Source: a virus
Taxonomy: Duplodnaviria > Caudoviricetes
Strand: one strand, 5' to 3'
DNA: 64,000 nucleotides
Virus record (IMG/VR): IMGVR_UViG_3300035544_000079
Span: 1 to 64,000 of that record
Below are positions 764 through 61,622 of the stretch, in pieces. The stretch's first letter is position 1, and the number at the start of each line of letters is the position of its first letter. The notes beneath the pieces were generated by a model, which did not search any database, was not told where the DNA came from, and saw only the letters and a program-made list of their open reading frames with translations. Position numbers and translations under genes: made by a program.

Positions 764-795
764 TTTATATCCTTTTTGTTTTAATTTGTATAGTA

Positions 796-832
796 ATTAT
801 AGTATAAAATAAAATTTTTGTCAAGGGTATTT
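796..832 (-). promoter_or_regulatory. sigma70-type early promoter (TTGACA-N17-TATAAT)
   Basis: Perfect consensus: TTGACA at 824-819, TATAAT at 801-796, same AAATACCC upstream flank as the promoter at 193-229. Confidence 0.85.
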
Positions 833-1789: not shown

Positions 1790-2203
1790 TTAAACATAAT
1801 AACTAACCTTATTTACATAATCAATTACTTTAAGTTTCTTTCCTTGATTTTTACTTATACCAAAACTATGCTCAGTACCTTTAGAAACACCATCCCAAAA
1901 AGCAATCCCAATATCAGAGTTCTCCCAAATATTATAATTACGCCTATACCCAGCACTCTTTCCGAACTTATTCCAATCAGGTAGTAATTCAATATATCTT
2001 TTGGAATCTTTATCAGACTCTCTTATAAAATGTTTATAATATCTTTTAGCATAATAATCTGCTCCTTTAGCCCCACCACTAACAATTATAAAAGAATTTA
2101 TATCAATATTATTTTCTTCTAAAAAGATTTCTAACTCTTTCTTGAATATCTTAGGCTTATTGAACCCTCTTGAACCAATTATTGCTACTTTAGTTTCTGT
2201 CAT
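1790..2203 (-). CDS. SLOG-fold (DUF2493/YspA-like) protein
   Basis: Motifs IIGSR, IVSGGAKGAD, PDWNKFGKSAGYRRN, AFWDGVSKGT; ATG at 2203 follows an SD-like AGGGAG. Confidence 0.8.
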   Translation of the reverse strand: MTETKVAIIGSRGFNKPKIFKKELEIFLEENNIDINSFIIVSGGAKGADYYAKRYYKHFIRESDKDSKRYIELLPDWNKFGKSAGYRRNYNIWENSDIGIAFWDGVSKGTEHSFGISKNQGKKLKVIDYVNKVSYYV

Positions 2204-2223
2204 ATTATTCTCCCTTATTTCCT

Positions 2224-2427
2224 TTAACTTTTCAAAGAACAAACCCCTAAAGACTTATCCTCTCCAACAGTTTCTAAAGAAATCATTCCTCTATAACCTT
2301 TTCTTGGTTCTTTTATTTCTTTATACTTCCAGAACACCCTCTAAGTACACTTATCAAAGATACACTCAGAGTTAATCTTTGGACAAAATAATTTAGAAGC
2401 TTCTTCTTTGGATAAATATTTATTCAT
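2224..2427 (-). pseudogene. small Cys-rich protein interrupted by in-frame TAG
   Basis: ATG 2427, reads MNKYLSKEEASKLFCPKINSECIFDKCT*RVFW...LGVCSLKS; TAG at 2343-2341. Confidence 0.55.
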
Positions 2428-21649: not shown

Positions 21650-23095
21650 ATGGAACAAAAGACTTTTGAAAGATTAGTTCCTAAGAATGTTTTAGAATAC
21701 CAAGAAACTTGTGGATTAATTAACCCTATTCAAGTTGCTGAAATGTTAGGACATACTTTACATGAAGGGCAACAAGAATTAGCTAGTTACTTCTTAGCTG
21801 AGAATAGGCATAAGTGGGATATTTATGTAGCCCTTTGTTCAAGAAGATGGGGTAAATCATTTGTTGCTGACGATGTTGCTATTGCTGAGTTATTAACTCC
21901 TAATGCAAGAGTTGCTATTATCACAATGGGACTTAAAAGAGCAAAGGAACACTTCAAAACTATCTTGAATGGACTTAATTCAATACCTGCTTTAAAAGGT
22001 AAAGTTAAAGGGTTAAAACAAGAACAAACTATTGAGATTGAGATTAATGGGAAAATAAGTACCTTAATCATTTCTTCTGAAACAACGTATGAAGCAAGGG
22101 TTGTTGGTACAGAGCTAACTTTACTTATTTTAGATGAATTTTTCCTTATCAATCCAATTATCCAACAAGAGCTTCTTGATGCTATTATTCCTACAATGGC
22201 TACTTATGGTACTTACCCAAATAGCTTAATTAAATATGGTAAAATTGCTATATTTAGTACACCAAGACTTGGAAAACTACAATCTCCAGCAGGTGTCTTA
22301 TTTGCTAAAGCTGAAAACAAAGACCCTGAATTTGATTCTTATGTTTATTCTAAATACGATGTTTATTCAAACCCACTTGTAACAAATGAGATTATTGAAT
22401 CAGATAGAAAGAAAATGTCTGAAAGTAAATTCAAAAGAGAGTATTTACTTGAATTTGATAATGGTGGAACAAAAGTTTTAAGTAATTTCTATGAGCAAAA
22501 ACACGTTATAAATGTTAGAAAACTAGAACATCTTAAAAATAGAGACGATTTATATTTAGTAATTGCTTACGATTATGGACAATCTGATGGTAATGCAGGT
22601 TTATTTGCACTTTATGACGAAAGAATTCATACTTATTACTTTATTGAAGGTACTTATGCTAAGAATAGACTTACGAGAGATATGTATTCAGAAGGAATTA
22701 AGATTAGAGATAACTTAATGAAAGAGTTTAATATATCCAAAGATAACATAGTTTATTTTGGAGACCCTAGCTCACCTGAACTTATCAAATTAGGTTTTAT
22801 TGATTATGGTATGAGAATTATGAAAGCTAAAAATGATAGAAAAGAAGGGTTTGATAAACTAAATGAACATCTAGAGGGTACTCCAGAGATTCCTTCAACA
22901 ATCTATATAGACCAAAAATTAACAGAAGTTATTAGACAATGGGACTTTGCACAATTTAAAGAAATCAATGGAACAGTAACGGTTAATTATGATAGGGATA
23001 TATTAGAAACACATTTTGAATTTGTTGATACAGCAAGATACATTGTATATACATTTGATAAATACATAAAGAAAACAAAAATATTAGTAGCTTAA
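21650..23095 (+). CDS. terL: terminase large subunit
   Basis: SRRWGKS Walker A, LLILDE Walker B, RNase H-like AYDYG...FGDPS nuclease domain. Confidence 0.92.
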   Translation: MEQKTFERLVPKNVLEYQETCGLINPIQVAEMLGHTLHEGQQELASYFLAENRHKWDIYVALCSRRWGKSFVADDVAIAELLTPNARVAIITMGLKRAKEHFKTILNGLNSIPALKGKVKGLKQEQTIEIEINGKISTLIISSETTYEARVVGTELTLLILDEFFLINPIIQQELLDAIIPTMATYGTYPNSLIKYGKIAIFSTPRLGKLQSPAGVLFAKAENKDPEFDSYVYSKYDVYSNPLVTNEIIESDRKKMSESKFKREYLLEFDNGGTKVLSNFYEQKHVINVRKLEHLKNRDDLYLVIAYDYGQSDGNAGLFALYDERIHTYYFIEGTYAKNRLTRDMYSEGIKIRDNLMKEFNISKDNIVYFGDPSSPELIKLGFIDYGMRIMKAKNDRKEGFDKLNEHLEGTPEIPSTIYIDQKLTEVIRQWDFAQFKEINGTVTVNYDRDILETHFEFVDTARYIVYTFDKYIKKTKILVA

Positions 23096-32911: not shown

Positions 32912-35900
32912 ATGGCTAATGATAATCAAACACAAACAACTACCTTAGTCTTAGATGCTGGTAATATTTCAAAGGGATTAGAAAAGCTAGAAAAAGATAT
33001 TACTAAAATTGGAGTTCAAACAGAAAAAGCTTTAGCAACTCTTAATAGTGAAAGTAATATTTATAAAACATTAGAAAAAAATCATTTAAGACTAGCAGAG
33101 ATACAAAGTAGAATTATTAAACTTAAAAAAGATGATACTCTCACTTCTGCCCAAATAAGTAATGAATTACAAACTTCATTAGGTAAATATTCTATTATAA
33201 AACAACAAGTAACAGATATTAATAAACTTTTAAATGTGACTCCTTCTCAGTTAAGGAGTCAAGGTAATGAGATTACTAAAATTGAAGATAAGTTTTCTAG
33301 TTTGAATAGGGAAGTAAGAAGTTTACAAGGGCATTATAAAACACTAGGCTCTAGTAAAGACTTAAAAAACTTATCTTCTCAAATGGAAGGGATAAAACAT
33401 CAACAAGAAATAATTAGTAATTTATCCAAAAAAGGAATTATAAATCTAACAACTTCTGATTTAAAAACGTTAGATACTGCTAAGGCAAGGTATAGGGAAT
33501 TAAAAAATCAAGTAGCAGATACAAAAGCAGAGCTTAGTGATGTTTCTATAGGAGGTCTTGCAAAATCAGCTGGAGTTAGAGCTTTAGGGTATTCAGCATT
33601 ATTTGCAATTATTGCAGGGATTACTCAAGCAGTAGGAGTAGGAACAAAGTATATCTTAGAATATGAATCAGGAATAAAAAGACTTCAAACTATCTTAGAT
33701 ATAAGTGCTTCAAGTGCTTCTAACCTAGAAGGCAAACTAGCAGATTTAGGTAGAACATATGGTGAACAATTAGATAGTATTAATAAAGTTGCATTAGAAC
33801 TTTCAAGAGCTGGATTAGCACTAAATCAGGTAGCTGATGCTTCTGAGGTAGTTATTAAATTAGCCTTATTAACAGGAGATAGTATTGAACAGTCTGCCAG
33901 TTCAATTATTTCTTTTACACAAGTATTTGGAAGAAATGAGTTTGGACAAGTTATTGCTAGTGTCGATGAGTTAGGGGCTAAATTAGCATACCTAGCAAAT
34001 AAGTCAAGATTAGGTACACAAGACATTAATACCTTTGCCAACTATGCTTTAGCTTCTGCGAAAGCTATTGGATTAACTATTGATGCTGTAAATGGTTTAG
34101 CTAGTGCTTTATCTAATGCTTCTTTTAACGCATCAACTATTGGTACACAAATAAGAAAATTTACTATTGCTTTAGGGAAAGATACAGGAGCTATTTCAAA
34201 CTTTTTTCAAAAAATAGGAGTTAATCAACAAAACCTAGCAAAACAAATAGCCCAAGGTGGAGAAGAAAGTAATAAAGCTTTATTAGGATTTTTAGATACA
34301 ATTAAATCATATAGTAGAGAAAGTTATAATGAGGCTCTTTCTGGAGTTGAAGTTCTTACAAAGAATGTATTTCAAGCATTACAGAATAATGCAAATGAAA
34401 TACAGACTAATCTAAGAGAATCTCTTAATGTAACTTCTGATGAGATTGATAAAGCAAAAAATATTACTGAGGATTATAGAAAGACTTGGTCTAAATTTGC
34501 AAATAATATACTTAGTGATTATAATAATGTTTTTAAACCAGTATTTGAAGGGCTTATTGGGTATATTTCTACTTTAAATAATAGGATGGCTTTATCTGAC
34601 TTTTTTGGTTTTTGGTCATCAATTTCTTCTTCTTTTTCAGAAGGAGCAGATTTAATAGATATAAAGCTGAAGTTAGTAGATGATAGTTTAAAAAATTTTG
34701 GTAAGAATGGTTCTGAACAAACTCTTAAAAGAACTAAATATGAATTAACTCAAATCCAACAAGTATTAGAAGCAATGATTGCACAAGCAACTAAGAAAAA
34801 TGAAAGTTTTGATGTAATTCAGAGATTAGAACAACAATTAAACAGTGTTAAAAAACAACAAAAAGAGTTAACAAAAAGTACACAAGAATATCAAAATATT
34901 TTAAATGATTTATCAAGTAAAGGCTTAGAACAGCAGAATCAGAAGAACATAACTTCCTTGACAAGAGTTATTGGTTTACAAGAAGCACAATTAAAAACTT
35001 TAGATAGCACAAGTAAACAATATACTTTATTAGAAACTCAAATTGAAAAAAATAGAACAAGATTAGAACAATTAAAAAAACCTATTGAAGATATTACCGA
35101 AGATACAAAAGTATTTAAAGAAACTTTTGACTTTTTTAGTACAGCAGATTTAACTAATATTCAAAATAGTATGACTTCTTTTAATAAGGCTATTAATATT
35201 GCTTCTACTGAAGAACTGCCTAAGCTTCAAAATATATTAGAAACAAAAATACAAAGAACACTTCAAGAATTGCCTAAGACAGTAAATACTGTAAAAGCAA
35301 GGTTATCAACTCTTGGGGAAGATATATCTTTTTTAAATGTGGATTCTTTTAAAGGGGCAGGTAGTGCTATAATTGAAATAGAGTCAAGAATAGATAGTTT
35401 AAGGCAAAATAGCTTAAATGCAAATAAAGAAGAAGTAAGAATAAATGAGGAAAAGATTAATGTATATAATACTCAAAAAGCTTTATTACAGAATCTTGTT
35501 GATGCTAACAATTTATTTCTAAACTCTTCTAAAAGAATTTCTGATTTAAAAGAGCAACAAGAAAAACAAACTAAGAAAGAAAAAAGACGACAAGACAATA
35601 TAACAAAGCAAATTATTAGACAACAAGTATCTGAAGCTCAATTAGCTTTGCAATATAAAGATAAAGACTCATTATTATTAGCAGAGATAAATACACGAGG
35701 AAAACTTCTTGGTAATCTACAAGATGAAAAAAACATACAAAATCAAATAGCTAAGATAAAAGCTTTAAGTTTACAATATGATAAAGCTTCTTTTTCAACT
35801 TCTCTTATAGATAAAGAAAGAGAAATAACAGATGAAATAGAAGCTCAAGAAGTTGCTATAAAAGATAGAATCCCACTAGAAACTACTTTATTACAAATCA

Positions 35901-36841
35901 AAAATGAACAGAAGTTTCAAAATGGAGAGATAACTAAAGCTGAGTATTTACAGAATCAACAAAGAATAAAAGATTTAAGAGATTTAAACTTACAATCTGA
36001 TAAACTAAAAGAAACTTTAGATAGCTTTGATAAATATGGTAACTCAGGATTCGCTAAAGCATTACAGTCCTATAAAGACAGCATACCAACAATTACAGAG
36101 GCATTAGAACAGGTAGGTAATGTAGGGTTACAATCTTTAGAAAATGGATTTATGAATTTCTTTGACGTAACTAATAAGGGCTTTATGGATATGGGGGATT
36201 TAGCTAAAAGTGTTATACAAGAAATTTATAAAGAATTAATAAGAACATTAATAGTCAAACAAGCAGTAAGTGGAATTGGTAGTATAGTTACTTCTGGAAT
36301 AGGTTCTCTTTTTTCAAGTGGAGCATCAGCGGTTACTTCAAGTGTAGCAAGTACAGCAGTATCTACTCCTCTTACTGATATGTACTTTGGAAGTTTAAGC
36401 TTAGCAAAAGGAGGTCTTATAGATGGAGTTCCTAATGGAAGAGTTAAAGGATATGCTAGTGGGGGTCTTTTAACAGGAGGCTCGGGTACAAAAGATGACC
36501 TCTATCTAGGACAAGTAAATGGTACTACTATTATGGCTATGGGAGGAGAACATATTACACAAAAATCATCAGTAAATCCTCAAACAAGACCTATGTTAGA
36601 TTATATTAATAAAACTGGGTCTGTACCAAGTTCTAATGCTGGAGGGACAGTAGTGAATTCTCCTGTATCTATAAATATTGAAAATAAAACTGGAACAGAT
36701 ATTGATGCAAAAATGATAGAACAAATAACGAAAAAGAATGATAATGATGAGTATGAAAAAATAGTAACTATAATGCTTCAAGCTAAAGAAACAGATAGTA
36801 GAATAAGAAGTGCCTTTGGTAGTAATAATGGAAGAGTTTAA
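32912..36841 (+). CDS. tape measure protein
   Basis: 1309 aa helical, TP901-like central region, C-terminal GYASGG/MGGEHI. Confidence 0.92.
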   Translation: MANDNQTQTTTLVLDAGNISKGLEKLEKDITKIGVQTEKALATLNSESNIYKTLEKNHLRLAEIQSRIIKLKKDDTLTSAQISNELQTSLGKYSIIKQQVTDINKLLNVTPSQLRSQGNEITKIEDKFSSLNREVRSLQGHYKTLGSSKDLKNLSSQMEGIKHQQEIISNLSKKGIINLTTSDLKTLDTAKARYRELKNQVADTKAELSDVSIGGLAKSAGVRALGYSALFAIIAGITQAVGVGTKYILEYESGIKRLQTILDISASSASNLEGKLADLGRTYGEQLDSINKVALELSRAGLALNQVADASEVVIKLALLTGDSIEQSASSIISFTQVFGRNEFGQVIASVDELGAKLAYLANKSRLGTQDINTFANYALASAKAIGLTIDAVNGLASALSNASFNASTIGTQIRKFTIALGKDTGAISNFFQKIGVNQQNLAKQIAQGGEESNKALLGFLDTIKSYSRESYNEALSGVEVLTKNVFQALQNNANEIQTNLRESLNVTSDEIDKAKNITEDYRKTWSKFANNILSDYNNVFKPVFEGLIGYISTLNNRMALSDFFGFWSSISSSFSEGADLIDIKLKLVDDSLKNFGKNGSEQTLKRTKYELTQIQQVLEAMIAQATKKNESFDVIQRLEQQLNSVKKQQKELTKSTQEYQNILNDLSSKGLEQQNQKNITSLTRVIGLQEAQLKTLDSTSKQYTLLETQIEKNRTRLEQLKKPIEDITEDTKVFKETFDFFSTADLTNIQNSMTSFNKAINIASTEELPKLQNILETKIQRTLQELPKTVNTVKARLSTLGEDISFLNVDSFKGAGSAIIEIESRIDSLRQNSLNANKEEVRINEEKINVYNTQKALLQNLVDANNLFLNSSKRISDLKEQQEKQTKKEKRRQDNITKQIIRQQVSEAQLALQYKDKDSLLLAEINTRGKLLGNLQDEKNIQNQIAKIKALSLQYDKASFSTSLIDKEREITDEIEAQEVAIKDRIPLETTLLQIKNEQKFQNGEITKAEYLQNQQRIKDLRDLNLQSDKLKETLDSFDKYGNSGFAKALQSYKDSIPTITEALEQVGNVGLQSLENGFMNFFDVTNKGFMDMGDLAKSVIQEIYKELIRTLIVKQAVSGIGSIVTSGIGSLFSSGASAVTSSVASTAVSTPLTDMYFGSLSLAKGGLIDGVPNGRVKGYASGGLLTGGSGTKDDLYLGQVNGTTIMAMGGEHITQKSSVNPQTRPMLDYINKTGSVPSSNAGGTVVNSPVSINIENKTGTDIDAKMIEQITKKNDNDEYEKIVTIMLQAKETDSRIRSAFGSNNGRV

Positions 36842-38385: not shown

Positions 38386-41300
38386 ATGATGAAACAAAAA
38401 GGAGTTCAAGATTACTCTATCACAAAAGCTAATATGGCATTTGTTGATATAAGAGATTCCTACAACGAAACAATAAAAAATATAAATATAAATACATTTT
38501 CTTTTGGTACAGTATTTATTACAGAAATTCCTAACCCTTTTAAACTTAATATTCAAAATAAAAGAACAGAACTTCATGGAAAGTATTTAATAGATTATGC
38601 TAGAAAAAATGAATTAGATGAAACAAATTATTGTATAATTTATAATGGGAAACTTATAAAAGAGAAAGAAGAACAAGAAAATATACTTGTAAAAGAAAAT
38701 GATATTATAGTATACTTTCCTTATCAAGAATTTTCAGCTATAGCCGCAGTTGCAAGTATTATTATGTCCTATATTGGTACTTCTGTAATTGCTACAGCAA
38801 TAGCCTATACCCTAGCAACAGGTCTTATTATTGGTGGTATGATGCTAATTAATAAAATGTTAGCACCTGATATACCTGAAACTAATATGGATAGTAATAT
38901 AAGTGAATCAAAAACTTATACATGGGAGGGTATTAGTACTAATAGGGATATAAATTCAGTAATACCTATTGTTTATGGAACTCAAGTAGTAGGTGGAACA
39001 GAAATAAACAAGTTCAGTTACTATGAAAATGGAGATGATTGGTTAGCAATACAATTAGCACTCGGTTATGGTGAAATTGAAGAAATATCTTCTGCTGATA
39101 TTTACTTCAACGGACAACCTTACAATAACTATGTGAGTAGTGTAAATGATGGTGTATTCTATTACCGAGATGGTACTTTTAATCAATCAATAATGAAAGG
39201 GTTTGATGATACCTCTTATAATAATGGTAATGTTACAGAAACGCTGACTTACAATGAGTCTTATATATTTGAGTCAGAAAGTGATAATATAGATAGATTT
39301 AAATTACACTTTGAATTTATGGAAGGACTTTATCATTTATATGCTAAAAAAAATAGATACCTTCCAGTTACAGTTAGCTATTCCATAGGGTATAGGATTA
39401 AAGGGGAATCTACTTGGAATTACTTTAACCCCCCAATATATCAAAAGCAATTCAGTATAAGTACTTTACAAACATTTAGGAAACGAAGAAGAGACTATTA
39501 CAGAACAGTACAAAAATATGTATGGTCAGATTGGGAAATATATAATAATAGTAATATATCCCATGCTGAAGAATTAGAATTACAAAAACAAAATAGAATA
39601 AGATATAGAAATGTTAATATAGGAGGAAATAATACTCTTAGTTATACTGCTAATAAAACTAGCAAAGTTAAATTTTTAGTTAGTAGTGATGATTTAGGTG
39701 TAAATCTTACAAAAGGTAAATATGAGTTTATAGTTACTAGATTATCTCCTATACCTAGTAATACTAAATATCATTTATATAAAACAGATATGACATTTTC
39801 ATACTTAGAAGAAATAAATACAACAGACCTAAATTATGGAGGGGTTTCTCAGTTAGGTATTAAAATAAAGGCAACTGATAGTATACAAAATCAACAACCT
39901 AATGTAACTACAAAAGTAACTAGAAAAGATTTAGATATTTATACTTCTGATGATTACTCTGAGAGCTTTAAAGCAAGAAGTAATAACCCAGCATGGGTAT
40001 GCTACGATATATTAACTAACCCTTTCTATGGGGCTAAGATAAAACCTTCTCAAGTAGATTTTGAAAGGTTTTCAGAGTGGGCTAGTTTTTGTGATTTAGA
40101 GTTTTTAAGAGAAGAAACTATTATAAGTAATAATGAGGTCTATACTATAGATAGACTTATATATAATAGTTCAGAAAGAACTCTAAAAGTTTATAAGTCA
40201 GAAATACTTCAAGAAATAAGCTCTATTGAATTATCTACTTATAATAAAGGTTTATCAAGAATTATTATTACAGATAATTCCAAAAATACTTTTCAGTTTA
40301 ATACTTTAATAAGTATAACAGAAGATGTAGATATAAATGGGGAATTTTATTTATTTAGTTTTAGTGAGTATAATTCTAATTTTGATTCTTCTAATATAGC
40401 TAATATAGATTTTTTATTAGATTTTGCTAGTACTGATTTTATCACTTTAACCAATTTAGGACATCCTTTGCAATTAAATTTTAATGGGGTGTTTGATACT
40501 TTAACAAACCCTTGGGATGCTTGTCAAAAAGTAGGTAAAATAGGTCGAGGTCAAATTCTATTAAGAGGTAATAAATATTCTTGTACTTTTGATGGGATAC
40601 AGCCTATATCTTATATGTTTAATGTAGGGGATATAAAGAAAGAATCATTTAATATTTCATATACTCCTCTTGCAGATTTAGCAACTGAATTAGAAATACA
40701 GTATGCAGATACTAGTATAAGAAACGAATTAAATACAATAACAATACTAGACCAAAATTTAACGGATACTACCTTAAATCCCAAAACATCAACAGTAAAC
40801 GCAATAGGGATAACGACTAAAGAGGAAGCTATTATATTTGGTAGATATATGTTGGCTACCACTAAATTTCAAAGAAGAACAGTTTCTTTTGAAACAAATA
40901 TAAAAGGACTTCCTTGTGAAGTTGGAGATGTTGTAGCTGTTCAAAATGATATTCCTCTTTGGGGAAGTGGAGGAAGAATACAAGAAGTGACACCAACTTC
41001 AGTAATTTTAGAAGAACCTGTTACTTTAATCTCTGATAAAGATTATACTTTAAAAATCCAAGTTGGAAATATCTTTCAAGACTATTATATAACTAACACA
41101 GACTTAACAGATACTCTTGAGATACCTCTATTAGATACTTCAGGTATTAGTCAATATAATAGTTACATTTTTGGAGAAAATAATAATGATGCTTTATTAA
41201 TTAGAGTTACTGGTATTACAAGAACTGATAGAGAATTTAATTTTAAAATAGAAGGTTCTGATTATAATCCTAGTATCTTAGATTTTAATTATAGTAATGA

Positions 41301-43017
41301 CCAAATTACTACTATTGAGCCATCTGTTTTAGAGGCGAATAGATTATTAACTTTTGAAGTATTAGATGAAGTTCAGAGTTCAGATGACGGTAGAGGAGTA
41401 ATTAATTTAATTATGTCTTGGACTGCTATATCAACAAGTACTTATGATATATATGCTATCCCTCATAATGATGACCCTGAATTAGAGATACCCTTTATAG
41501 AATTGGACAATATACAAGATAATAGAATATATATTGCTAAAGGAGTAAAAGGTAACTCCTATATTGCTAAAAATGTTGGGTTATTAGAAATACCTTATAG
41601 AGTCTATATACAAGAAGTAGATAATCCAAGCAATTTTTTACAAGTACTTTATACAGTTGATGGTAAGCAGATAAGTCCTTTAGATATTGATAATATAACT
41701 GTTACTGAAAGTGGTAATGAATTTACCTTTAATATTACTTACTTAGGTAAAGCTTCAGATTTTAAACATTATAATCTTTATTTAGAGGATAAATTTTATG
41801 GTTCTTTTAATCAAGATGCTTTTAAAACAGATATTATCTATGGATTAGATACAAAGAATTTTAAAATAGAGGCTGAGGATTCTAGTGGAAATAAAAGTGA
41901 GCCTTATTTAATAAGTAAAACAGCAGAAGCTCCCCCTAAAGCAGATTACTTTTTTTGTGAAATAACTGATACTAAGAATATTAGGTTTACTTTTGATTGT
42001 CTAAGTAAACCTTTAGATTTTAGTGGGTATGAAATTAGGTATCAATATGGACTAAATTATGATTGGAATAGTGCTACTAAAATACAAAAAGGTGTTATTA
42101 CATCTTCACCTTACCTAAGTCATTTGAAATTACAAAATGGGCTTTATACGGCTTTATTAAAAACAGTTGATTCAGCAGGAAATTTAAGTAAATATACCTC
42201 AAAAATAACTTTTAATATTGAAGAAAGTTTATTTAGTAACTTAGTATATACTAAAGATTTTCACCCAACATTTGTAGGAGATTATACTAATTGTTATTTA
42301 GAAGATAACAAATTAATAACAGAGATTAATGCAAGTGAATTTTGGAAAGGGGATTCTAATAATTATTGGGATTCTGATTTTGATATGTATTGGTACTCAA
42401 ATAGTTCGCCTCATTGGGATGATACTCTGAATGAGTTTTGGGGAGTAGACCAACTACCTTTTTGGGACAATGAATATACTTATAGAAGTATCTATGAAAC
42501 TTCATTTATAACAGATGCAAAAGGTATTTTAGACTTTAGGTTTATTGGAAAAGGAACACCAACTTATTATATAAGAAATAGGGATATATTACCTTTTTGG
42601 GAAGAAAATGGTACAGAATTTTGGGAAGAAGATATTAAAAATTTTTGGACAATCCCTAACTACTCCTTATATAGTTCAGGTTACGAAGTTGTTCCTTTTG
42701 TAGAATATGACTTACAAGTTGTTTTTGAAAGTACTAATACTGTAATCTCTGAGATAGAAGAGTTTAGTTTATTCATTGACGCTCAAGATATTTTTGAAAG
42801 TTTCGAGGATGTAAATGTACCTATTAGTGGTTATAGTCTTAACCTTATAAAAACATTTAGTAAAATAAAATCAGTAAATGTTACGGTTCAAGATGATGGT
42901 GGAAACGCTAGGATTTCTAAAGTAGATAAATCAGGAACTCCTTATGAAGTTTATTGTTATGATGAAAACAATAACTTAACAAGTGGAACTGTAGATATAA
43001 TTATCCAAGGGTATTAA
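38386..43017 (+). CDS. tail tip/central fibre protein (gpI+gpJ-like)
   Basis: IPIVYG, NNPAWVCYDILTNPFYG, EVGDVVAV, FnIII-like repeats. Confidence 0.88.
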   Translation: MMKQKGVQDYSITKANMAFVDIRDSYNETIKNININTFSFGTVFITEIPNPFKLNIQNKRTELHGKYLIDYARKNELDETNYCIIYNGKLIKEKEEQENILVKENDIIVYFPYQEFSAIAAVASIIMSYIGTSVIATAIAYTLATGLIIGGMMLINKMLAPDIPETNMDSNISESKTYTWEGISTNRDINSVIPIVYGTQVVGGTEINKFSYYENGDDWLAIQLALGYGEIEEISSADIYFNGQPYNNYVSSVNDGVFYYRDGTFNQSIMKGFDDTSYNNGNVTETLTYNESYIFESESDNIDRFKLHFEFMEGLYHLYAKKNRYLPVTVSYSIGYRIKGESTWNYFNPPIYQKQFSISTLQTFRKRRRDYYRTVQKYVWSDWEIYNNSNISHAEELELQKQNRIRYRNVNIGGNNTLSYTANKTSKVKFLVSSDDLGVNLTKGKYEFIVTRLSPIPSNTKYHLYKTDMTFSYLEEINTTDLNYGGVSQLGIKIKATDSIQNQQPNVTTKVTRKDLDIYTSDDYSESFKARSNNPAWVCYDILTNPFYGAKIKPSQVDFERFSEWASFCDLEFLREETIISNNEVYTIDRLIYNSSERTLKVYKSEILQEISSIELSTYNKGLSRIIITDNSKNTFQFNTLISITEDVDINGEFYLFSFSEYNSNFDSSNIANIDFLLDFASTDFITLTNLGHPLQLNFNGVFDTLTNPWDACQKVGKIGRGQILLRGNKYSCTFDGIQPISYMFNVGDIKKESFNISYTPLADLATELEIQYADTSIRNELNTITILDQNLTDTTLNPKTSTVNAIGITTKEEAIIFGRYMLATTKFQRRTVSFETNIKGLPCEVGDVVAVQNDIPLWGSGGRIQEVTPTSVILEEPVTLISDKDYTLKIQVGNIFQDYYITNTDLTDTLEIPLLDTSGISQYNSYIFGENNNDALLIRVTGITRTDREFNFKIEGSDYNPSILDFNYSNDQITTIEPSVLEANRLLTFEVLDEVQSSDDGRGVINLIMSWTAISTSTYDIYAIPHNDDPELEIPFIELDNIQDNRIYIAKGVKGNSYIAKNVGLLEIPYRVYIQEVDNPSNFLQVLYTVDGKQISPLDIDNITVTESGNEFTFNITYLGKASDFKHYNLYLEDKFYGSFNQDAFKTDIIYGLDTKNFKIEAEDSSGNKSEPYLISKTAEAPPKADYFFCEITDTKNIRFTFDCLSKPLDFSGYEIRYQYGLNYDWNSATKIQKGVITSSPYLSHLKLQNGLYTALLKTVDSAGNLSKYTSKITFNIEESLFSNLVYTKDFHPTFVGDYTNCYLEDNKLITEINASEFWKGDSNNYWDSDFDMYWYSNSSPHWDDTLNEFWGVDQLPFWDNEYTYRSIYETSFITDAKGILDFRFIGKGTPTYYIRNRDILPFWEENGTEFWEEDIKNFWTIPNYSLYSSGYEVVPFVEYDLQVVFESTNTVISEIEEFSLFIDAQDIFESFEDVNVPISGYSLNLIKTFSKIKSVNVTVQDDGGNARISKVDKSGTPYEVYCYDENNNLTSGTVDIIIQGY

Positions 43018-43049
43018 CTCTTGGTATATGATAAAAATAAAGGAAAATA

Positions 43050-44477
43050 ATGCCATTACCAAGTAAAAATGAATTAAGTTTAGCTCCAAATAACTTAACA
43101 ATGAAACAGTTAATGGAGCAACAAAGAGATAGCATACAAGGTTCAGGAAAACAGTATAGTACAGATGTCGAATATGAGCTATATGATACTTGTATTTATG
43201 GAGGAATTGAATATATTAGTATTTATAATGTAGGTGATACAAAACATACTAATCAACAACCTAATATTAGTCCTACTTATTGGCAAGATAAAAGAGTATT
43301 TGATGGTGTTGTTAGTTTAGATGTATTAGATGATTATGTAACAGATACTGAATTAAATACTGCTTTAGATGATTATTATACTAAACAAGAAACTTTAGAT
43401 TTACTCTCTGGGTTAGATATAGTATACACAGGTGCTTATGGAATAACTTGGAATAATACTAATGATATATACATTAGAACAGGTTCTTCAAATTATAAAG
43501 CCATTCAAGCTTTAATGAGAAGATGTGTTTTAAACATAGATGGAACAGTAAATTATTATTTACATCCTACTAACTCAAATTATAAAGCAGATGGAACATT
43601 AGCTAACTTAGATGGTACTGACGGGAATGTTATGGTAGAGATACCTAAATTTTATGTTAAGTTTGATAATACTGAAGGTGCTAAAAATGTCAGTATTTCA
43701 TTAACACAAGACACTGGCTATACTTTACATCCAGCATTTATTAAAGGTGGTGTTGAAGTAGCACACCGATACTATCCTGCTTATGAAGGATATAATGATA
43801 GTGGTACATTAAAATCTATTAGTGGAGTAACTCCTACAAGAAGCCAAACAAGAGCTACTTTTAGAACACAAGCTGAAAACAATGGTACAGGATGGCATCT
43901 TATTGATTGGAATTTACTAAATGCTATTCAAGTACTATGTTTAATAGAAATTGGTACTTGGGATGCTCAAGCAATATTAGGTAATGGTAACTCTACGGGA
44001 AATGATTTTGGAGTAATTACGGGTATATCTAATTCAATAGGAAATGCTAGTACTTCGAATCCTTCGGATACTTGGATGAGTTATCGAGGTATAGAAAATC
44101 TTTATGCAGATATATGGAAATTTATTGATGGTATAAATGTAAGAGATAGAGTACCTTACATTAACTCTGATTATAGAACTTTTGCTGATGATACTTTTAC
44201 TGGAGATTATATTTCTAGTAATATTACTATGCCTAGTGCTTCAGCGAGTTATATCAAGAATATTACATTTAGCTTAAATGGGTTCATATCAACTGAAGTA
44301 GGAGGCAGTTCTAATACATATGTACCTGATGGATTATGGACAAACACAGGAGATAGGGTTGTTTTCTTTGGGGGTACTGCGGCTACTTCTTCTTCTCTGG
44401 CTGGTCTGGGGGCGCTTGCTGCGTATGCTTCCTCTACATATGTTTCCGCGAATGTTGGTTCGGGCGTCTGCTTTTAG
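43050..44477 (+). CDS. tail fibre/receptor-binding protein, DGR target with C-terminal C-type-lectin-like domain
   Basis: NVMVEIPKFY, YRGIENLYADIW, C-terminal VR-encoded FGG...VGSGVCF. Confidence 0.88.
   Translation: MPLPSKNELSLAPNNLTMKQLMEQQRDSIQGSGKQYSTDVEYELYDTCIYGGIEYISIYNVGDTKHTNQQPNISPTYWQDKRVFDGVVSLDVLDDYVTDTELNTALDDYYTKQETLDLLSGLDIVYTGAYGITWNNTNDIYIRTGSSNYKAIQALMRRCVLNIDGTVNYYLHPTNSNYKADGTLANLDGTDGNVMVEIPKFYVKFDNTEGAKNVSISLTQDTGYTLHPAFIKGGVEVAHRYYPAYEGYNDSGTLKSISGVTPTRSQTRATFRTQAENNGTGWHLIDWNLLNAIQVLCLIEIGTWDAQAILGNGNSTGNDFGVITGISNSIGNASTSNPSDTWMSYRGIENLYADIWKFIDGINVRDRVPYINSDYRTFADDTFTGDYISSNITMPSASASYIKNITFSLNGFISTEVGGSSNTYVPDGLWTNTGDRVVFFGGTAATSSSLAGLGALAAYASSTYVSANVGSGVCF
44356..44469 (+). 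repeat. DGR variable repeat (VR)
   Basis: Aligns to TR with 24 differences at TR adenines, one G/A difference and one extra TCT. Confidence 0.95.
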
Positions 44478-44531
44478 GTTAAATAGTATTAAAAAGTACA
44501 AATAAAAATAAACATAGGGCTAAAATTCACC

Positions 44532-44642
44532 AGATTGTTAAATTTGGAGGTAATGCGAATAATTCTTCTCTAGATGGTCTAGGGACGCTTAATGCGAATA
44601 ATTCCTCTACGAATGTTTCCACGAATATTGGTTCAGGCATCT
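44532..44642 (+). ncRNA. DGR template repeat (TR)
   Basis: 111-nt AAT-rich copy of the VR, located between target and RT. Confidence 0.95.
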
Positions 44643-44756
44643 TGTAAACTAAGAACCTTTAGCCCTTGCCACTTGGCAAAACAAATAACTAAACTTCATT
44701 ACATATTAGTAAGATTAAATTCTGAAAGTTTGGAAGTAACAAGACGAAAGAAAAAT

Positions 44757-45812
44757 ATGAAAAGATACAACAATTTAATTGAAAGTATTATAGACCAAAA
44801 TAACTTAATTGAAGCACATAATAATGCAAAGATAGGAAAAGATTTTTATAAAGAAGTAAAAGAATTAGATAGTTACTTAGACTACTATATAGAAGATTTA
44901 TATAATAAGTTAACTACAAGAACTTTTACTACAAGTCCATATACAGCATTTATTAAACAAGATTCAGGCAAAGAAAGAATAATATATAAATTACCTTACT
45001 ACCCAGATAGGATAGTACATCACGCTATAATGCAAGTATTAGAGCCTATATGGAAGAAAACATTAATAGCAGATACTTATCAAAGTATTAGAGGTAGAGG
45101 TGTTCATAAGTGTTTTAAAAAAGTTAAAAAGGCTGTACAACAAGAAAGATTAAGTTATTACCTACAGATAGATGTAAATAAATTCTACCCTTCAGTTAAG
45201 AATGATGTTGTAAAGAAAGTAATAAGACAAAAGATTAAGTGTAAAGGCACATTAGCTTTATTAGATGATATAATAAATAGTCATCCAGAGTTACCTATAG
45301 GAAACTATATAAGTCAGTACTTAGGAAATCTAACATTGTCTAAAATAGACCACTTAATGAAAGAGAAACTTAAATGTAAAAATTACTATAGATACTGTGA
45401 TGATATAGTAATCATATCAGATAATAAGAAATTTCTACATAAATGTTTAGATATTTTAAGTAAAGAATTATATAAAATACAATTAACGATTAAGAAGAAC
45501 TATAGTATAAATAAAATCAATCATAGACAAGGTATTGACTTTTTAGGATATGTTGTGTATAAAGATAAAGTATTAATAAGAAAAAGAATAGCTAAAGAAT
45601 TTAAAAGAAAGATTATGAAAGCTATAAAGAATAAAGATACAAAGGCAGTAGATTTTTTAAGTGCTTATTATGGTTGGTTTAGGTATGCAGATTGCTATAA
45701 TTTATGGAATAAGTATATAACAATGTATTATAATATGTTTATAGCTAATTATCCTAAACATAAGTATATGAATAGAGTATATAAGCTATACACTAAATTT
45801 AATAAACGATAA
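44757..45812 (+). CDS. DGR reverse transcriptase
   Basis: YPDRIVHH, YQSIRGRGVH, DVNKFYPS, LPIGNYISQ, YCDD; probable start ATG 44757 (MKRYNNL). Confidence 0.95.
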   Translation: MKRYNNLIESIIDQNNLIEAHNNAKIGKDFYKEVKELDSYLDYYIEDLYNKLTTRTFTTSPYTAFIKQDSGKERIIYKLPYYPDRIVHHAIMQVLEPIWKKTLIADTYQSIRGRGVHKCFKKVKKAVQQERLSYYLQIDVNKFYPSVKNDVVKKVIRQKIKCKGTLALLDDIINSHPELPIGNYISQYLGNLTLSKIDHLMKEKLKCKNYYRYCDDIVIISDNKKFLHKCLDILSKELYKIQLTIKKNYSINKINHRQGIDFLGYVVYKDKVLIRKRIAKEFKRKIMKAIKNKDTKAVDFLSAYYGWFRYADCYNLWNKYITMYYNMFIANYPKHKYMNRVYKLYTKFNKR

Positions 45813-45833
45813 AGCAAAAATAAAGGAAGAAGT

Positions 45834-46223
45834 ATGGAGATACAAGAAATAAAAATAGTACAAAGTTCAGTAGAGCCTAGTGTTACTGAAGAGTTACAAG
45901 GTAAAATACTTGTTAACTTCAATATAGAAGAAAAAACTAGAATAGATAATAATGAAGAAGAAATTACTTATTATGAATATTATCAAATATCTAGACCTTT
46001 AGGGGATACAGAAGATAGGATAGAAAAGTATACTAACTATGCTAAGATACAAATTATGCAAGAGTATTTAGAGAAAACAGATTATATCTCAAATAAATAT
46101 CAAGACGAAGTTATACTTTTAGGAAATTTAACACAAGAAGAGTTTATAGAAAAGTATCAAGAAGTATTAAATACAAGAAGTACTTACAGAGGTAATATAA
46201 ATAAAATATATAAAAATATGTGA
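45834..46223 (+). CDS. tail-fibre-associated protein (not Avd-like)
   Basis: Beta-rich N-half, YLEKTDY motif; function uncertain. Confidence 0.4.
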   Translation: MEIQEIKIVQSSVEPSVTEELQGKILVNFNIEEKTRIDNNEEEITYYEYYQISRPLGDTEDRIEKYTNYAKIQIMQEYLEKTDYISNKYQDEVILLGNLTQEEFIEKYQEVLNTRSTYRGNINKIYKNM

Positions 46224-46321
46224 ATGTGGGCAGAAATGTTCTTATGTATTCTGTTATAATAGTATTTGGAAGAAAATATAAAGATGTTTAAGGTATTATA
46301 AAGAAATATAAAAGGAAAAAT

Positions 46322-47227
46322 ATGATAGTAACAAAAGAAAATGGAACGATTTATACAAAATATATTAAAAATATATGTATGTGGTTAGGTAAAGGGTTTG
46401 TAAAAGTTTATCCTTACTTAGCTGTAATGTTGGTGTTAGCTGGATTATACTTTCACACACAAGCTATGGTTATCCTAGGTTTAATATTTATCACTCATTT
46501 AATTATAGCATTTAGTACTAGAGATAAAACTAGGCCTATTTGTTATAATTATTTCTTAACTAATAATTGGCATATACCAAGATTAACTAGAGATGATAAG
46601 TTAATTATTAAAGAAGATGATGATAAATACACATTTGTTTCATCTAAATATAATTCTACAAATATATTAACTAAAAGAGAGATTCCAAGTTGGTTATTTT
46701 GGATTTCCTTCTTAGGTGGTTGGATTTGGTTTGGAGATAATTCTGATGCAGATTTAACTGTTGAAAATTATGCTGATGACATTATAAGAGAAAAAAAGCA
46801 CTTTGATTGGATACCTAGTTGGCTAGGTTTTCATAAAGAAATACAAAGAGAGTGGGATTATATTAAAACTCAACCTAAAGGAACTTCTTTCCATTTAGCT
46901 GAAGGGAGAACTAAAGTAAGTATACTTAAAACACCTCTTATGACTTTACTATGGCAAATAAGAAATACGAGTTATAACTATGGCTACTACTTTGAAGAAA
47001 AAGCCAAAGATGATAAAGACTTCTATTATTATCATACTAAGAGAAAATATCCTATACCTACATTAAATAGTTGGAATGGAATACCTTATATTTGGTATGA
47101 GATGTCTTATCTTCACTTTGGGTTTATCCCTTATGATAATAGTGAGAGACAAGGTAGAGCTGTTATATTTACTGAAGATATAAATAAGGTTGATGATGAA
47201 ATCAGGAACATATACATCAATGGATAA
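46322..47227 (+). CDS. membrane protein of unknown function
   Basis: Two N-terminal hydrophobic segments, Trp-rich body; TGnTATAAT upstream. Confidence 0.5.
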   Translation: MIVTKENGTIYTKYIKNICMWLGKGFVKVYPYLAVMLVLAGLYFHTQAMVILGLIFITHLIIAFSTRDKTRPICYNYFLTNNWHIPRLTRDDKLIIKEDDDKYTFVSSKYNSTNILTKREIPSWLFWISFLGGWIWFGDNSDADLTVENYADDIIREKKHFDWIPSWLGFHKEIQREWDYIKTQPKGTSFHLAEGRTKVSILKTPLMTLLWQIRNTSYNYGYYFEEKAKDDKDFYYYHTKRKYPIPTLNSWNGIPYIWYEMSYLHFGFIPYDNSERQGRAVIFTEDINKVDDEIRNIYING

Positions 47228-47383
47228 AATTATTAGAGAGTTTAGTGAAGTACCTAAGCTTTATAATTCTACAAGAGTTGATTTAAGAACAAATAATATA
47301 GGACATAAGGTAATATTCGACCCCGAAGCATTTAATAATGTTAATACTTTAGAAAGAAACAAACAAATAATATTTAGTTATGA

Positions 47384-47734
47384 ATGGAGGATAGAATTTT
47401 GATTAATATAAGCACACTCTTAACTAATATTAAAGTTTACATTTATATAGGACTATTTTTAGGAGTAATTTCTTTTTTAGTTTATGCTTACTATAAATAT
47501 AATAATATGATTTCTACAATAGAAAATCAAGAGATTATTATTAAAAATAAAGACATAGAGTTAAGTATAGAAAAAGCTAATTATAAAGAATTAGAAAGAA
47601 AACACTCTAACGAAATACTTAAGTTAAAAGCTGAAACTAAAATAAAAGCTAAACAAAAAGAAATAGAAAAAGGAGTAAGTTATGATAAAAGCAATTCAAG
47701 GGAAATTACCTCTACATATATTGATTTGCCTTAG
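47384..47734 (+). CDS. inner-membrane spanin (Rz-like)
   Basis: N-terminal TM followed by coiled coil; overlaps a lipoprotein gene. Confidence 0.7.
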   Translation: MEDRILINISTLLTNIKVYIYIGLFLGVISFLVYAYYKYNNMISTIENQEIIIKNKDIELSIEKANYKELERKHSNEILKLKAETKIKAKQKEIEKGVSYDKSNSREITSTYIDLP

Positions 47735-48038
47735 TGCTTTTAGCCTCTTCTTTTCAGGCTGTTCTCAAAAGGAACCTCAAGTAATTATTCAAAAAGAGTA
47801 CATTTATGAAAAACCTTTTGAGTTCGTTATTTATGATACAAAAGGTTTAAGAGTAAATGCTAAAACAAAAGAACTTCAAAGAATATGTACTCCTTTAGTT
47901 CTTGAAGTAGGAGGTATTTATAGAAAATTTATTAATGGTTATGAAGAACAAATTAAAGAGTATAATACTTATAATAAAAATAAGAGTATAAATAATACTA
48001 AGGATACTTATATATCAAATAAAAAAGAGCTTAAATGA
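47682..48038 (+). CDS. outer-membrane spanin lipoprotein (Rz1-like)
   Basis: Lipobox FFSG-C. Confidence 0.72.
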   Translation: MIKAIQGKLPLHILICLSAFSLFFSGCSQKEPQVIIQKEYIYEKPFEFVIYDTKGLRVNAKTKELQRICTPLVLEVGGIYRKFINGYEEQIKEYNTYNKNKSINNTKDTYISNKKELK

Positions 48039-48310
48039 CTTTAGAAGAAAAAGATAAATATAGGTTAAGATTTAAGGTAGCTTCTATTTTAATGGTTTTT
48101 GGTGTTCTTGTTGGAGGAATTATTTTAGCTTACTTTGGAAGTATAAGTGGTTTCGGAGGAATTGCTGGTTCAGTGTGTGCTTTTGCAAGTGCTGTTTTTG
48201 GGATAGATTATTATACTTCCCCTAAAGATACTAATAAATCAAGCACTTCTAAAGATAATTCCTTTAAAAGAAATAATCTAGACATAGATACAGAGTTAGG
48301 TAGGTATTAA
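48035..48310 (+). CDS. holin (putative)
   Basis: Two TM segments and a charged C-terminal tail in the lysis cassette. Confidence 0.6.
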   Translation: MTLEEKDKYRLRFKVASILMVFGVLVGGIILAYFGSISGFGGIAGSVCAFASAVFGIDYYTSPKDTNKSSTSKDNSFKRNNLDIDTELGRY

Positions 48311-48372
48311 TAATACTAAAGTATTAAAATATTAAAATACTAATAAATAAAAATATTTGAGGAATAATTTAG

Positions 48373-48957
48373 ATGGATTTTTTTAATAAAGGCTTAGAAA
48401 AAACAAGCAAATTAAGCGAAAATGATGCTAATGAGTTATTTAATAGGCTAAGATTTTTAGAAATGAAAGGTGCTGAGCAAGATAAAGATATTAGCTCTAT
48501 TATTACAGCTGTTAGAGAAGTCAAAGAAATATTTAAAGAGCATGATGATAAAGAGATGAAAAAATATGAACAAACAGATAACTCAATAAAGCAAATGACT
48601 GAAAGTATGATTAAAGTTAATGAAAATCTAAACTCTTTAGATAGTAGTATAAAAAATCAATCCACTCAATTAGAAAAGTTATCAGAGGCTCATTATAAGC
48701 ATAAAGAGGATGTAGATAACAGATTAGATAAGCAAGACGCTAAGATAAATAAAATGTTAGGAGGATTGATTTTGGGCTCAATTCTTTTGGGTATGTCTTG
48801 GCAAGTATATACTTACTTTGCCAATAAGTTTGAAAGACAAGAGCATGTAAGAATTGAAGAGAAAAAACAACTAGAAGAAAAGATTAAGTTACTAGAAAAT
48901 TATACGAATAGGAATAAAGGTAGTTTAGATACTTTAAAACAAATAAAAGGTAAATAA
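48373..48957 (+). CDS. coiled-coil membrane protein (holin/antiholin-like)
   Basis: Long coiled coil with one C-terminal TM, before the endolysin. Confidence 0.45.
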   Translation: MDFFNKGLEKTSKLSENDANELFNRLRFLEMKGAEQDKDISSIITAVREVKEIFKEHDDKEMKKYEQTDNSIKQMTESMIKVNENLNSLDSSIKNQSTQLEKLSEAHYKHKEDVDNRLDKQDAKINKMLGGLILGSILLGMSWQVYTYFANKFERQEHVRIEEKKQLEEKIKLLENYTNRNKGSLDTLKQIKGK

Positions 48958-48977
48958 AGAAAATAGAAAGGATAACG

Positions 48978-49613
48978 ATGGATTACAATACATCTGATAA
49001 GTCCAATATATGTTTTAATTGGACAGTAGGTAAAGAGGGTGGGTTTGTACATAATATAGATGGAGATGGTCTATATACGCTCTTTGGGATAACTCAAAAG
49101 TATAACCCTAATTGGGAGGGTTGGGATATAGTAAATCAAATAATAAAAGACCGCCCAAAAGATTATAAAGAAATTATTAATAAAAATACAGAGTTAAAAG
49201 CTTTAGCACAAAAAAGATATAAAAATAAGTATTGGGAAACTCTTTGGGAAGAATTACCAATTAGATTTGGTTTAGTATTTTTTGATATGAGAGTTCAACA
49301 TGGAAGAAGATTAGATAAAGAGATTCAAAAACTTATCAAAAGAAAACTTCCTAAAGAAATTGCTGAATATGAAGCACAAGGAAAAAGATTTGTTGATAGT
49401 TATTATGGAAAGACTACCCAAAAATATATTTTAAAAATGCTTAATCAGTATGGTGAAATGGAAATTTTGTTTCAATTACTTTTAGAGAGGCTTGATTTAT
49501 TTGTAGATTGGGCTGAGTATAAGAATAAAAAACACCTTTATTTTGGTACAACAAAGCATAGAGTGAGAGATTTATATATGGAGATTCTTAAATCAAAATA
49601 TAATGAGGATTAA
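48978..49613 (+). CDS. endolysin, glycoside hydrolase family 108
   Basis: EGGFVHNIDGDG...TLFGIT motif. Confidence 0.8.
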   Translation: MDYNTSDKSNICFNWTVGKEGGFVHNIDGDGLYTLFGITQKYNPNWEGWDIVNQIIKDRPKDYKEIINKNTELKALAQKRYKNKYWETLWEELPIRFGLVFFDMRVQHGRRLDKEIQKLIKRKLPKEIAEYEAQGKRFVDSYYGKTTQKYILKMLNQYGEMEILFQLLLERLDLFVDWAEYKNKKHLYFGTTKHRVRDLYMEILKSKYNED

Positions 49614-49631
49614 TTAAATAAAAGGTTTAAA

Positions 49632-49658
49632 AAGAGGGATTAGCTACCCTCTTCTTTT
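49632..49658. terminator. bidirectional terminator between convergent modules
   Basis: AAGAGGG-N8-CCCTCTT hairpin flanked by A and T runs. Confidence 0.75.
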
Positions 49659-50884
49659 GGTTTAAACTTCAAACATCTCTCTAAACTTATCATCACCTAA
49701 CTTTAGTAACTTAGCTTTTCTAAAAGGTTTTTCTTCTATAGTATAACTTATATCAATATGGTTTTTAGACCAAAGTACTTCATCACCTTTTTCAATATTA
49801 ATTGTTAAAATATCTTGGTTAAGAAATGTCTCTAAAACAAGATTATAATTAATACCTTCCTTAAACTTACTATTAATAACTTTTCTTACGAAATACTTAT
49901 TATTATTATCATTACCCACGTTATTATCTTTCATGTCTCTCCTTTAATTCTTTTAATTTATTTTTTAACTTTTTATTTTCATTTTCTAAGTCCTGTACCC
50001 ATAACTCTAATATGTTAATACTAGAATAAGCATAATTAATCCCCCTTTCTAAAGATTTTCTCTCTAGTGCTCTAGCTTTAGCTAATCTTTGATAATAAGT
50101 TTCTTTAGTACCTTCTTTATTTAGTATAAAAGGTTCTCTTGTTATCTTTAAATTCTTATAAGTAGTACTTATATACTTAAGAGCTAACTCTTCTGATGAC
50201 CAAACTGAGTCAATAACTGTACTAAAGTTACCATCAACAATTTCATGTACGAGATATATTGGTTGGGTATTTTTCATATTTTTCTCCTTATTTTTTAACT
50301 TTCTAATTTAATTTTTATGCTAGTGAATTATATTGCTAAGAGTGTCAAGATAATCTATTTGTTCTTCACCAATACTAATTCCAATGAATCCACAGTCAAC
50401 ATCACTTGCATTGTCATAATCTTCTTTAGAATAAACACATGGTGTTCCATCTACCATAATAACAACCAAGCCGTGTTTTTTAAGATTTTCCAACGCTCTT
50501 TTTACTCTCGTTATTGCCGACTTTTGTTCCTTAGTTAAATCACAGTATTCAGTAGCCATTTGTATCTCCTTTAATTTTTTAACTTTCTAATTTAATTTTT
50601 AAAATTATGCAATTTATCCCAAAATTTTTTAGGACACCTAATCTTACCAATTTTTACCTACTTTTTAAGTTTCTCCTACCAAATAAACCTTTTTAGTCTT
50701 TCTTGATACATTATTCATTTAGAGCTTTATCTTCAATATTTGTATAGAGAAAGAGGTGTTAAATTAAGTTAGGATTAGTCTTTACATTATTTCTCCTTTT
50801 GTTTTTTTTATGAAATGATTATACAAGAATATTTCCTATGGTTTGCTTAAAGGGGTATTTACAAAGTAATATGTAAAAAGAACT

Positions 50885-61016: not shown

Positions 61017-61622
61017 TTATTTCTCCTCAAGTAGTAATTTTAAAGTATTTTTAAAAGAGTAATAGTTATCTTTAGATTTTCTATACTTTAATTCTAAATC
61101 TTTTTCTATTTTATCAATATTATTTTTATAATAATTCAAGAAAAACTCTTTACCTTGTGAAGTTAGAATATCAAAAAGGTAAAAAGGATTAACATAATTG
61201 TTATAAGGATTATGGAGATTTCTACCATATTCTATATTATCTAGGTACTCTACTCCTTTATAAATTCCTGATTTTATAACTAAATTATTTGAACCACTTC
61301 TCTCCCTCCAACCTCTACTATAACCTAGATTGTTTTTATGTAATGTAGTATCCACTGTTAAAAAACTCAAAAACTTTTCCAATTCAATAGGATTTTTGTT
61401 ATTATTCATTTGGCATTTATCTGTACCTAGCTTTCTTTTTAATTCTTCTAAATCCATATTTTCTCCTTTTATTTTAATGTTTCATTTATAAGTAGTATTG
61501 TAACAATATTAACCTTAAAGTTTCATTAAAAGTATATTAATAACACTTGGTTATAAGTATAGGCGTTTTTATGTTAGTTTAAGGTTAGTTGTAGTAAGTA
61601 GTTTGTTAGTATCTCAAGAGGA

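Follow-up and report, generated by a model that had tools for sequence, protein, structure and literature searches.

A probable minimal, Avd-less diversity-generating retroelement at the tail-fibre gene of a phage, with signs of recent activity

Whether a phage diversity-generating retroelement (DGR) can rewrite a tail protein without the accessory protein Avd is the question raised by a compact cassette in a Caudoviricetes genome, IMG/VR record IMGVR_UViG_3300035544_000079. The source record is linear (72,135 nt, estimated 79% complete, 27.5% G+C); the stretch analysed, bases 1-64000, is referred to here as the window. The cassette is very probably a genuine, recently active, minimal Avd-less phage DGR that rewrites the tip of a tail fibre. 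Its parts would be a target gene with a variable repeat (VR), a template repeat (TR), a structured spacer RNA and a reverse transcriptase (RT). They are listed below with the open reading frame (ORF) that follows them.

43050..44477 (+), DGR target: 475-aa tail protein with a predicted C-type-lectin-fold C-terminal body (phrog_5302 'tail protein', 9e-87; AlphaFold2 (AF2) and Foldseek)
44359..44469 (+), VR: codons 437-474 of the 475-codon target, within the last 119 nt of the ORF (local alignment to the TR, repeat finder)
44535..44642 (+), TR: 108 nt with 29 adenines and 8 AAY codons (local alignment, repeat finder)
44662..44752 (+), structured spacer RNA: divergent RT-17-like motif, putative DGR 'Sp' region (Rfam RF03020)
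44757..45812 (+), DGR RT: 351 aa (RVT_1, 2e-15; phrog_1423, 9e-91; motifs)
45834..46223 (+), ORF129: 129-aa acidic protein, pI 4.6, of what is called here family B (hidden Markov model (HMM), AF2, neighbourhood)

The repeat pair and its recent change

The VR is 3 nt longer than the TR, with three copies of TCT to the TR's two, and for all VR/TR counts the alignment gap was put in this TCT repeat. Aligned in this way, the VR has another base at 22 of the 29 TR adenines (G at 11, C at 7 and T at 4), and the only mismatch elsewhere is a single G to A. The probability of at least 22 of 23 mismatches falling on A, which makes up 27% of the TR, is 4.7e-12. The pattern described in the original prediction stands; its counts (24 of 31 adenines differing: 13 to G, 7 to C and 4 to T) were obtained with a slightly longer TR and the gap at another position. 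In the frame of the target, 14, 10 and 5 of the TR adenines lie at codon positions 1, 2 and 3, respectively; AAY codons together with adenines mostly at codon positions 1 and 2 are the classic design of a DGR template. Homology between the two repeats stops 4 nt past the last variable adenine. No other VR is present in the 72-kb record, where the next-best TR-like site agrees at just 40 of 79 non-A positions.

The RT has the DGR-type forms of the motifs [I/L]GxxxSQ and YxDD (IGNYISQ at residue 181 and YCDD at residue 213) and is 29% identical (E 5e-42) to bRT of phage BPP-1. Its true start is the ATG at 44757 (MKRYNN...), which is the same in all relatives. A longer ORF, 44592-45812, was rejected as the RT, its first 55 codons being an artefact of reading through the TR and spacer.

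The AF2 model of the target, built from 70 homologues, has a pLDDT (AF2's per-residue confidence score) of > 90 for most of residues 130-475, except for a loop near 310-345. In a Foldseek search its best solved structure was 5VF4 (E 1.5e-12), the DGR variable protein TaqVP of Thermus aquaticus (entry identity confirmed in PMC6328139). Next came variants of Mtd, the BPP-1 variable protein (1YU0-4, E 6e-4 to 2e-3), followed by FGE/EgtB/PvdO enzymes. As TaqVP and Mtd are the best matches, the target is predicted to be a C-type-lectin-fold variable protein. The claim that this is a compact DGR acting on a tail protein is thus borne out by the VR/TR pair, the RT motifs and the fold match to TaqVP and Mtd.

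Evidence for recent activity comes from a second copy of the phage. In a different sample a protein search picked up a target with 97% identity, on contig L052 (Logan SRR11802023), which aligns with window 41298-50477 (9180 nt). In the 3.2-kb cassette all differences between the two copies (17 substitutions and a 3-nt indel) fall in the VR, between 44385 and 44458; TR adenines account for 15 of the 17 substituted sites. BLAST totals over the full 9180 nt are 16 mismatches and 3 gap openings, which leaves no room for differences outside the VR; the TR (100%), RT and ORF129 are identical. Since phage copies identical over 9.2 kb outside the VR nevertheless differ within it, the element appears to have been recently active: judged from these two sequences, the VR has been diversified very recently in nature and the change is confined to it. 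The original prediction had cautioned that invariant VR reads would indicate a currently inactive element, a concern answered, to the extent that assemblies allow, by two phage copies whose VRs differ at TR adenines. Contig L053, a more remote relative with 84% DNA identity to the window, also carries a VR/TR pair, in which 22 A-to-N changes are accompanied by a single other change.

The VR of L052 is the same length as the TR. The extra TCT (Ser) codon of the window (44385-44393) is absent from the window's own TR and from the VR of L052; it is private to the window copy and probably arose by slippage in the TCT run.

Old VR/TR divergence in a decayed relic would be an alternative source of the mismatches, and the single non-adenine mismatch, the 3-nt difference in length and the lack of a recognisable IMH (initiation of mutagenic homing) element or hairpin are in keeping with it. 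However, a relic does not account for the L052 comparison, in which two copies identical over 9.2 kb outside the VR have 17 VR differences, 15 of them on TR adenines, and the RT has an intact ORF with intact motifs. Decay is therefore extremely improbable, and recent mutagenic activity is the reading carried forward here.

Search for Avd

The target stop codon is separated from the TR by 57 nt and the TR from the RT by 114 nt; with gaps of this size there is no room for an avd gene in the cassette, as had been claimed from the sequence. The search for Avd elsewhere was made with NCBIfam model NF033474 (DivGenRetAVD), which detected Avd in four of four control phages: BPP-1 (106.8 bits), Vibrio phage ZX4290 (116.4), Bacillus phage BalMu-1 (131.5) and Pseudoalteromonas phage ACA1 (113.4). 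With the same model no Avd was found in the 72-kb record, in the complete genome of the cultured Yersinia phage fEV-1, in hankyphage p00 or in a Helicobacter canis prophage. Nor was any found in 22 related IMG/VR records, including G008 and G010, which are complete as judged by direct terminal repeats (DTRs), apart from one 12-bit noise match in a 377-aa frame. Among the phages tested, RTs of Avd carriers are at most about 31% identical to the window RT and all those with closer RTs lack Avd. Small basic ORFs elsewhere in the window gave no Avd-like Pfam or PHROG match.

Two other models were tried. A profile search with Pfam PF05635 returned nothing from the record or from 25 related records, but it also missed Avd in BPP-1 itself and was disregarded. 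Claims of Avd absence based on PF05635 run in the same way are unreliable; NF033474 does detect the BPP-1 Avd. TIGR02436, run without a control, gave no match either.

Because a control-validated model finds no Avd in the 72-kb record or in complete genomes of the same RT clade, Avd-independence is favoured over an Avd encoded elsewhere, these being the two possibilities that the original prediction had left side by side. From these searches the whole RT clade (including crAss-like phages, hankyphage and Yersinia phage fEV-1) appears to be without Avd.

The RNA between TR and RT may be part of the explanation. The equivalent spacer in relatives L001, L003, L005 and L047 matches the Rfam RT-17 RNA (RF03020) at 44.7 to 59.4 bits, all above the gathering score. 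Conservation is also seen in the first hairpin (UGCC/GGCA), where L014 and L019 show a CG-to-GC swap. By analogy with the 'Sp' region of BPP-1, the RT-17-like spacer RNA probably positions and primes the RT. That it lies in the spacer at all had escaped the original prediction.

Several observations weigh against an active element that works without Avd. Neither a post-VR hairpin nor a BPP-1-like IMH block was found, and 44440-44536 has no stable hairpin (z-scores +1.4 and -0.6). The match of the window's own spacer to RT-17, while covering the full model (1-95), is sub-threshold: it reaches 35.8 bits (E 1.5e-4), and the gathering score is 40.4. Activity was deduced from two assembled consensus sequences rather than from read-level heterogeneity. 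As for Avd itself, the protein is poorly conserved and a very divergent form could escape NF033474; five small basic ORFs (1356-1778, 3497-3871, 4421-4729, 49924-50277 and 61017-61457) are unannotated; and in a linear record that is 79% complete, the missing part, or the host, might supply Avd.

The last of these points is the basis for supposing that the DGR relies on Avd in trans, either supplied by the host or encoded in the ~21% of the phage genome that is missing, as might be expected from the fact that Avd is essential in BPP-1 (PMC5758913). The incompleteness of this record does not extend to all of its relatives, however: the same-clade complete genomes G008 and G010 (DTR) and fEV-1 gave no match with the model that recognised Avd in all four controls, and no avd was present elsewhere in genomes with Avd-less DGRs (Wu et al., PMC5758913). 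Supply in trans is accordingly very unlikely, and Avd-independence continues to be preferred.

Small genes beside the reverse transcriptase

The gene directly downstream of the RT, ORF129, was examined as a possible Avd and rejected, in agreement with the earlier view that it does not look like one. Avd is a basic four-helix bundle of ~110-130 aa, whereas ORF129 is acidic (pI 4.6), has a beta-plus-helix fold and matches no Avd profile. In its AF2 model four strands, with a long beta-hairpin among them, precede the helices, and pLDDT is near 90 for residues 1-70. ORF129 has no Pfam, PHROG or NCBIfam match. Foldseek against the PDB returned nothing at E ≤ 1e-3, the best Z in a VIA-align wide search was 5.1, on helices only, and in BFVD only uncharacterised phage proteins match.

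ORF129 does, however, belong to a conserved family. An HMM built from post-RT genes in relatives, with the window ORF excluded, scores ORF129 at E 1.3e-6, and an exhaustive profile search for family B gave 558 cluster representatives (E ≤ 1e-3). A family-B gene comes immediately after the RT, in many cases with an overlap at the RT stop codon, in most of loci L001-L023, in L029-L034, in fEV-1 (g30) and in the crAss-like phages cr50_1 (gp043) and cr55_1 (gp060). It also lies directly after target homologues with no RT between them in L046 (twice), L049 and L050, and in cr50_1, where the B-like gp045 comes after the tail protein gp044. Sutterella loci, which belong to the same RT clade and have no homologue of the window target, lack family B. 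As it follows fibres without an RT and is missing from the Sutterella loci, family B tracks the tail-fibre family and not the RT. On balance, and somewhat more probably than the alternatives, the TR-RT unit is lodged between a fibre gene and a small partner of the fibre, ORF129, which is perhaps an assembly or attachment factor. This status of the next gene as a conserved partner of the tail-fibre family had been overlooked in the original prediction.

L046, a JGI 3300005882 contig of 6.2 kb, has at 180-4286 a tandem arrangement of fibre (436 aa), family B, fibre (632 aa) and family B-like protein (142 aa). Both fibres are 53 to 56% identical to the window target and the family-B protein is 61% identical to ORF129; there is no RT or TR on the contig.

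The same neighbourhood could be read as showing that family B is this lineage's replacement for Avd and a true DGR accessory factor. Nearly all relatives, crAss-like phages and fEV-1 among them, have it directly after the RT, and it is the sole conserved neighbour in minimal cassettes without family A (see below). There is also a precedent in CH1, an acidic accessory protein that Wu et al. (PMC5758913) report from Avd-less DGRs only. Despite this, family B pairs with fibres that lack an intervening RT (L046, L049, L050 and cr50_1 gp044-gp045), it is absent from Sutterella loci that share the RT clade but have no target homologue, and its acidic beta-plus-helix fold is unlike the basic four-helix Avd. 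A role as accessory factor is unlikely, and that of fibre partner is preferred.

CH1 comprises 160- to 169-aa acidic proteins of Bacteroides Lineage 3a DGRs (PMC5758913). Family B was compared with the acidic ORF after the hankyphage RT, a proxy taken as CH1-like from size, charge and host only, and neither identity was upheld, the similarity not being significant (hhalign E 0.13; BLASTP 0.39 against the hankyphage ORF).

Another small gene, family A, travels with the Avd-less RT clade. Its products are ~75-100 aa with a pI of 7 to 9, have the motif KFSDF...LDGEK...YLTIQ...FTGS.VL..Q...PF....GKYY.F and no Pfam match, and their genes occupy the interval from VR to TR, the place expected for avd, or else come immediately behind the RT, at the following positions:

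L016, 1133-1363
L021, 162-455
L020, 5490-5705
L004, 1360-1656
L001, 7324-7632
L025, 1334-1696
L035, 6010-6294

In hankyphage, family A is apparently fused to the C-terminus of the RT (L055, RT residues 342-422, 20.5 bits), and the ESM Atlas gave a weak lead to a Phi29-type single-stranded DNA-binding protein (SSB; 0.92). In Avd-less DGRs, family A is a candidate for an accessory role. It was rejected as a hidden gene of this sort in the window cassette, being absent from the 72 kb (best E 0.03 with a six-frame HMM; no hit in a genome search that gave 135.6 bits for control G004), and it is likewise absent from the complete genomes G008, G010 and fEV-1.

Mechanism, genomic context and known systems

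In the proposed mechanism, following established DGR biology, a transcript of TR and spacer would be reverse-transcribed, with the RT misincorporating opposite template adenines. The mutagenised cDNA would then replace the 3'-terminal VR of the tail-fibre gene. Up to 19 codons could be varied in this way, on the face with which a receptor-binding protein of C-type-lectin fold binds its ligand, which may alter the adsorption range of the phage. The element would work without Avd, the RT-17-like spacer RNA being the likely scaffold of the RT, and ORF129 would most likely be a tail-fibre partner (assembly or attachment factor) and not a component of the retroelement.

A broader speculation, with rather low odds, is that in this RT clade Avd's role of holding the RT on its template RNA has passed to the RT-17-type spacer RNA alone or to the family-B protein. 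If true with the spacer RNA alone, the RT and one RNA would form a self-sufficient two-part mutagenesis machine; if true with family B, there would be a new kind of DGR accessory factor. A two-component DGR (RT and TR-spacer RNA) would suit mechanistic study and tools for targeted mutagenesis, with fEV-1, a cultured relative, as a tractable system. In its own right the cassette is a well-documented natural Avd-less DGR for which activity can be demonstrated from two environmental copies that differ in the VR only. The C-type-lectin (CLec) tail-fibre family with its small acidic downstream protein is a modest new lead for annotation.

The cassette is at the end of a siphovirus-like structural module, in which portal, capsid, tail tube and tape measure (32912-36841) genes are followed by that for a gpJ-like protein and then by the target gene. 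The gpJ-like gene adjoins the target on its upstream side:

38386..43017 (+), central tail fibre / host-specificity (gpJ-like) protein, 1543 aa (Pfam Phage-tail_3, 2.5e-11)

A receptor-binding role for the target, which we infer, fits this position after the gpJ-like protein. No Pfam family matches the large terminase (window 21650-23095, +), which is only ~23% identical to T5-like terminases, and the phage backbone has no close cultured relative. On the minus strand, window 10871-14125 encodes the large subunit of ribonucleotide reductase (1083-1084 aa) with an intein at about residues 475-754, which carries a LAGLIDADG homing-endonuclease domain.

Relatives of the RT are found in crAss-like phages, Yersinia phage fEV-1, Bacteroidota metagenome-assembled genomes (MAGs) and Sutterella. 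Because the terminase relatives are distant (~23%) and the RT relatives come from unrelated hosts, no host call is possible. No evidence was found for the Campylobacterota host that had been suggested: the only Campylobacterota record among the matches listed is the Helicobacter canis prophage, L059 (BK070057.1), whose RT (1032-2078) is 33% identical to the window RT. It has no NF033474 match and a DUF1353 protein is encoded after the RT.

The Avd-less layout, whose novelty the original prediction had implied, is an architecture already described (PMC5758913). Wu et al. 2018 (PMC5758913) found avd in 74% of 372 DGRs, while their Architecture A (TR-RT or RT-TR, with no accessory gene) made up 29% (75 of 372); a profile search revealed no avd elsewhere in Architecture A genomes, and Avd-independent retrohoming was explicitly proposed. 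Roux et al. 2021 contains no discussion of Avd. Current understanding is thus not overturned by this element, its architecture having been catalogued in 2018.

The prototype is the BPP-1 DGR (mtd-avd-TR-brt). Like it, the window element is phage-borne, has a C-type-lectin receptor-binding target with a 3' VR, has its TR and RT downstream and shows adenine-specific substitutions; the window RT shares 29% identity with bRT, and Mtd is among the matches of the target model. Unlike it, the window has no avd, the TR begins 57 nt after the target, and a GC-rich IMH block and post-VR hairpin were not detected. Lacking Avd, the cassette falls outside the BPP-1-type Architecture B (avd-TR-RT).

Hankyphage (Bacteroides phage p00) has an RT 32% identical to that of the window, no NF033474 match and an acidic ORF of ~161 aa after the RT. 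In contrast to the window, its RT has a C-terminal family-A domain, and the similarity of its post-RT ORF to ORF129 is not significant. The spacer resembles the Rfam RT-17 RNA (RF03020) in its full-length match, conserved hairpin and UAGUA ... GAA core, and differs in a score (35.8 bits) below gathering (40.4) and in a second stem that is short and AU-rich.

Among the closest RTs in the phage collection are those of Yersinia phage fEV-1 (LT992259) and the crAss-like phages cr50_1, cr55_1 and cr56_1, which are 40 to 44% identical to the window RT. In fEV-1 and cr55_1 the arrangement is also shared: tail fibre, TR, RT and a family-B gene that overlaps the RT stop codon. In cr50_1 the shared arrangement covers the RT and the family-B gene. 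fEV-1 and the crAss-like phages differ from the window in their backbones and hosts.

In overall plan the cassette resembles Architecture A1 (TR-RT with no accessory gene) and Lineage 3, which lacks avd, as defined by Wu et al. 2018 (PMC5758913); the order is likewise target-TR-RT without an Avd, HRDC or MSL gene. The minimal Avd-less layout is already documented, and the element in the window is a clean example of this known kind.

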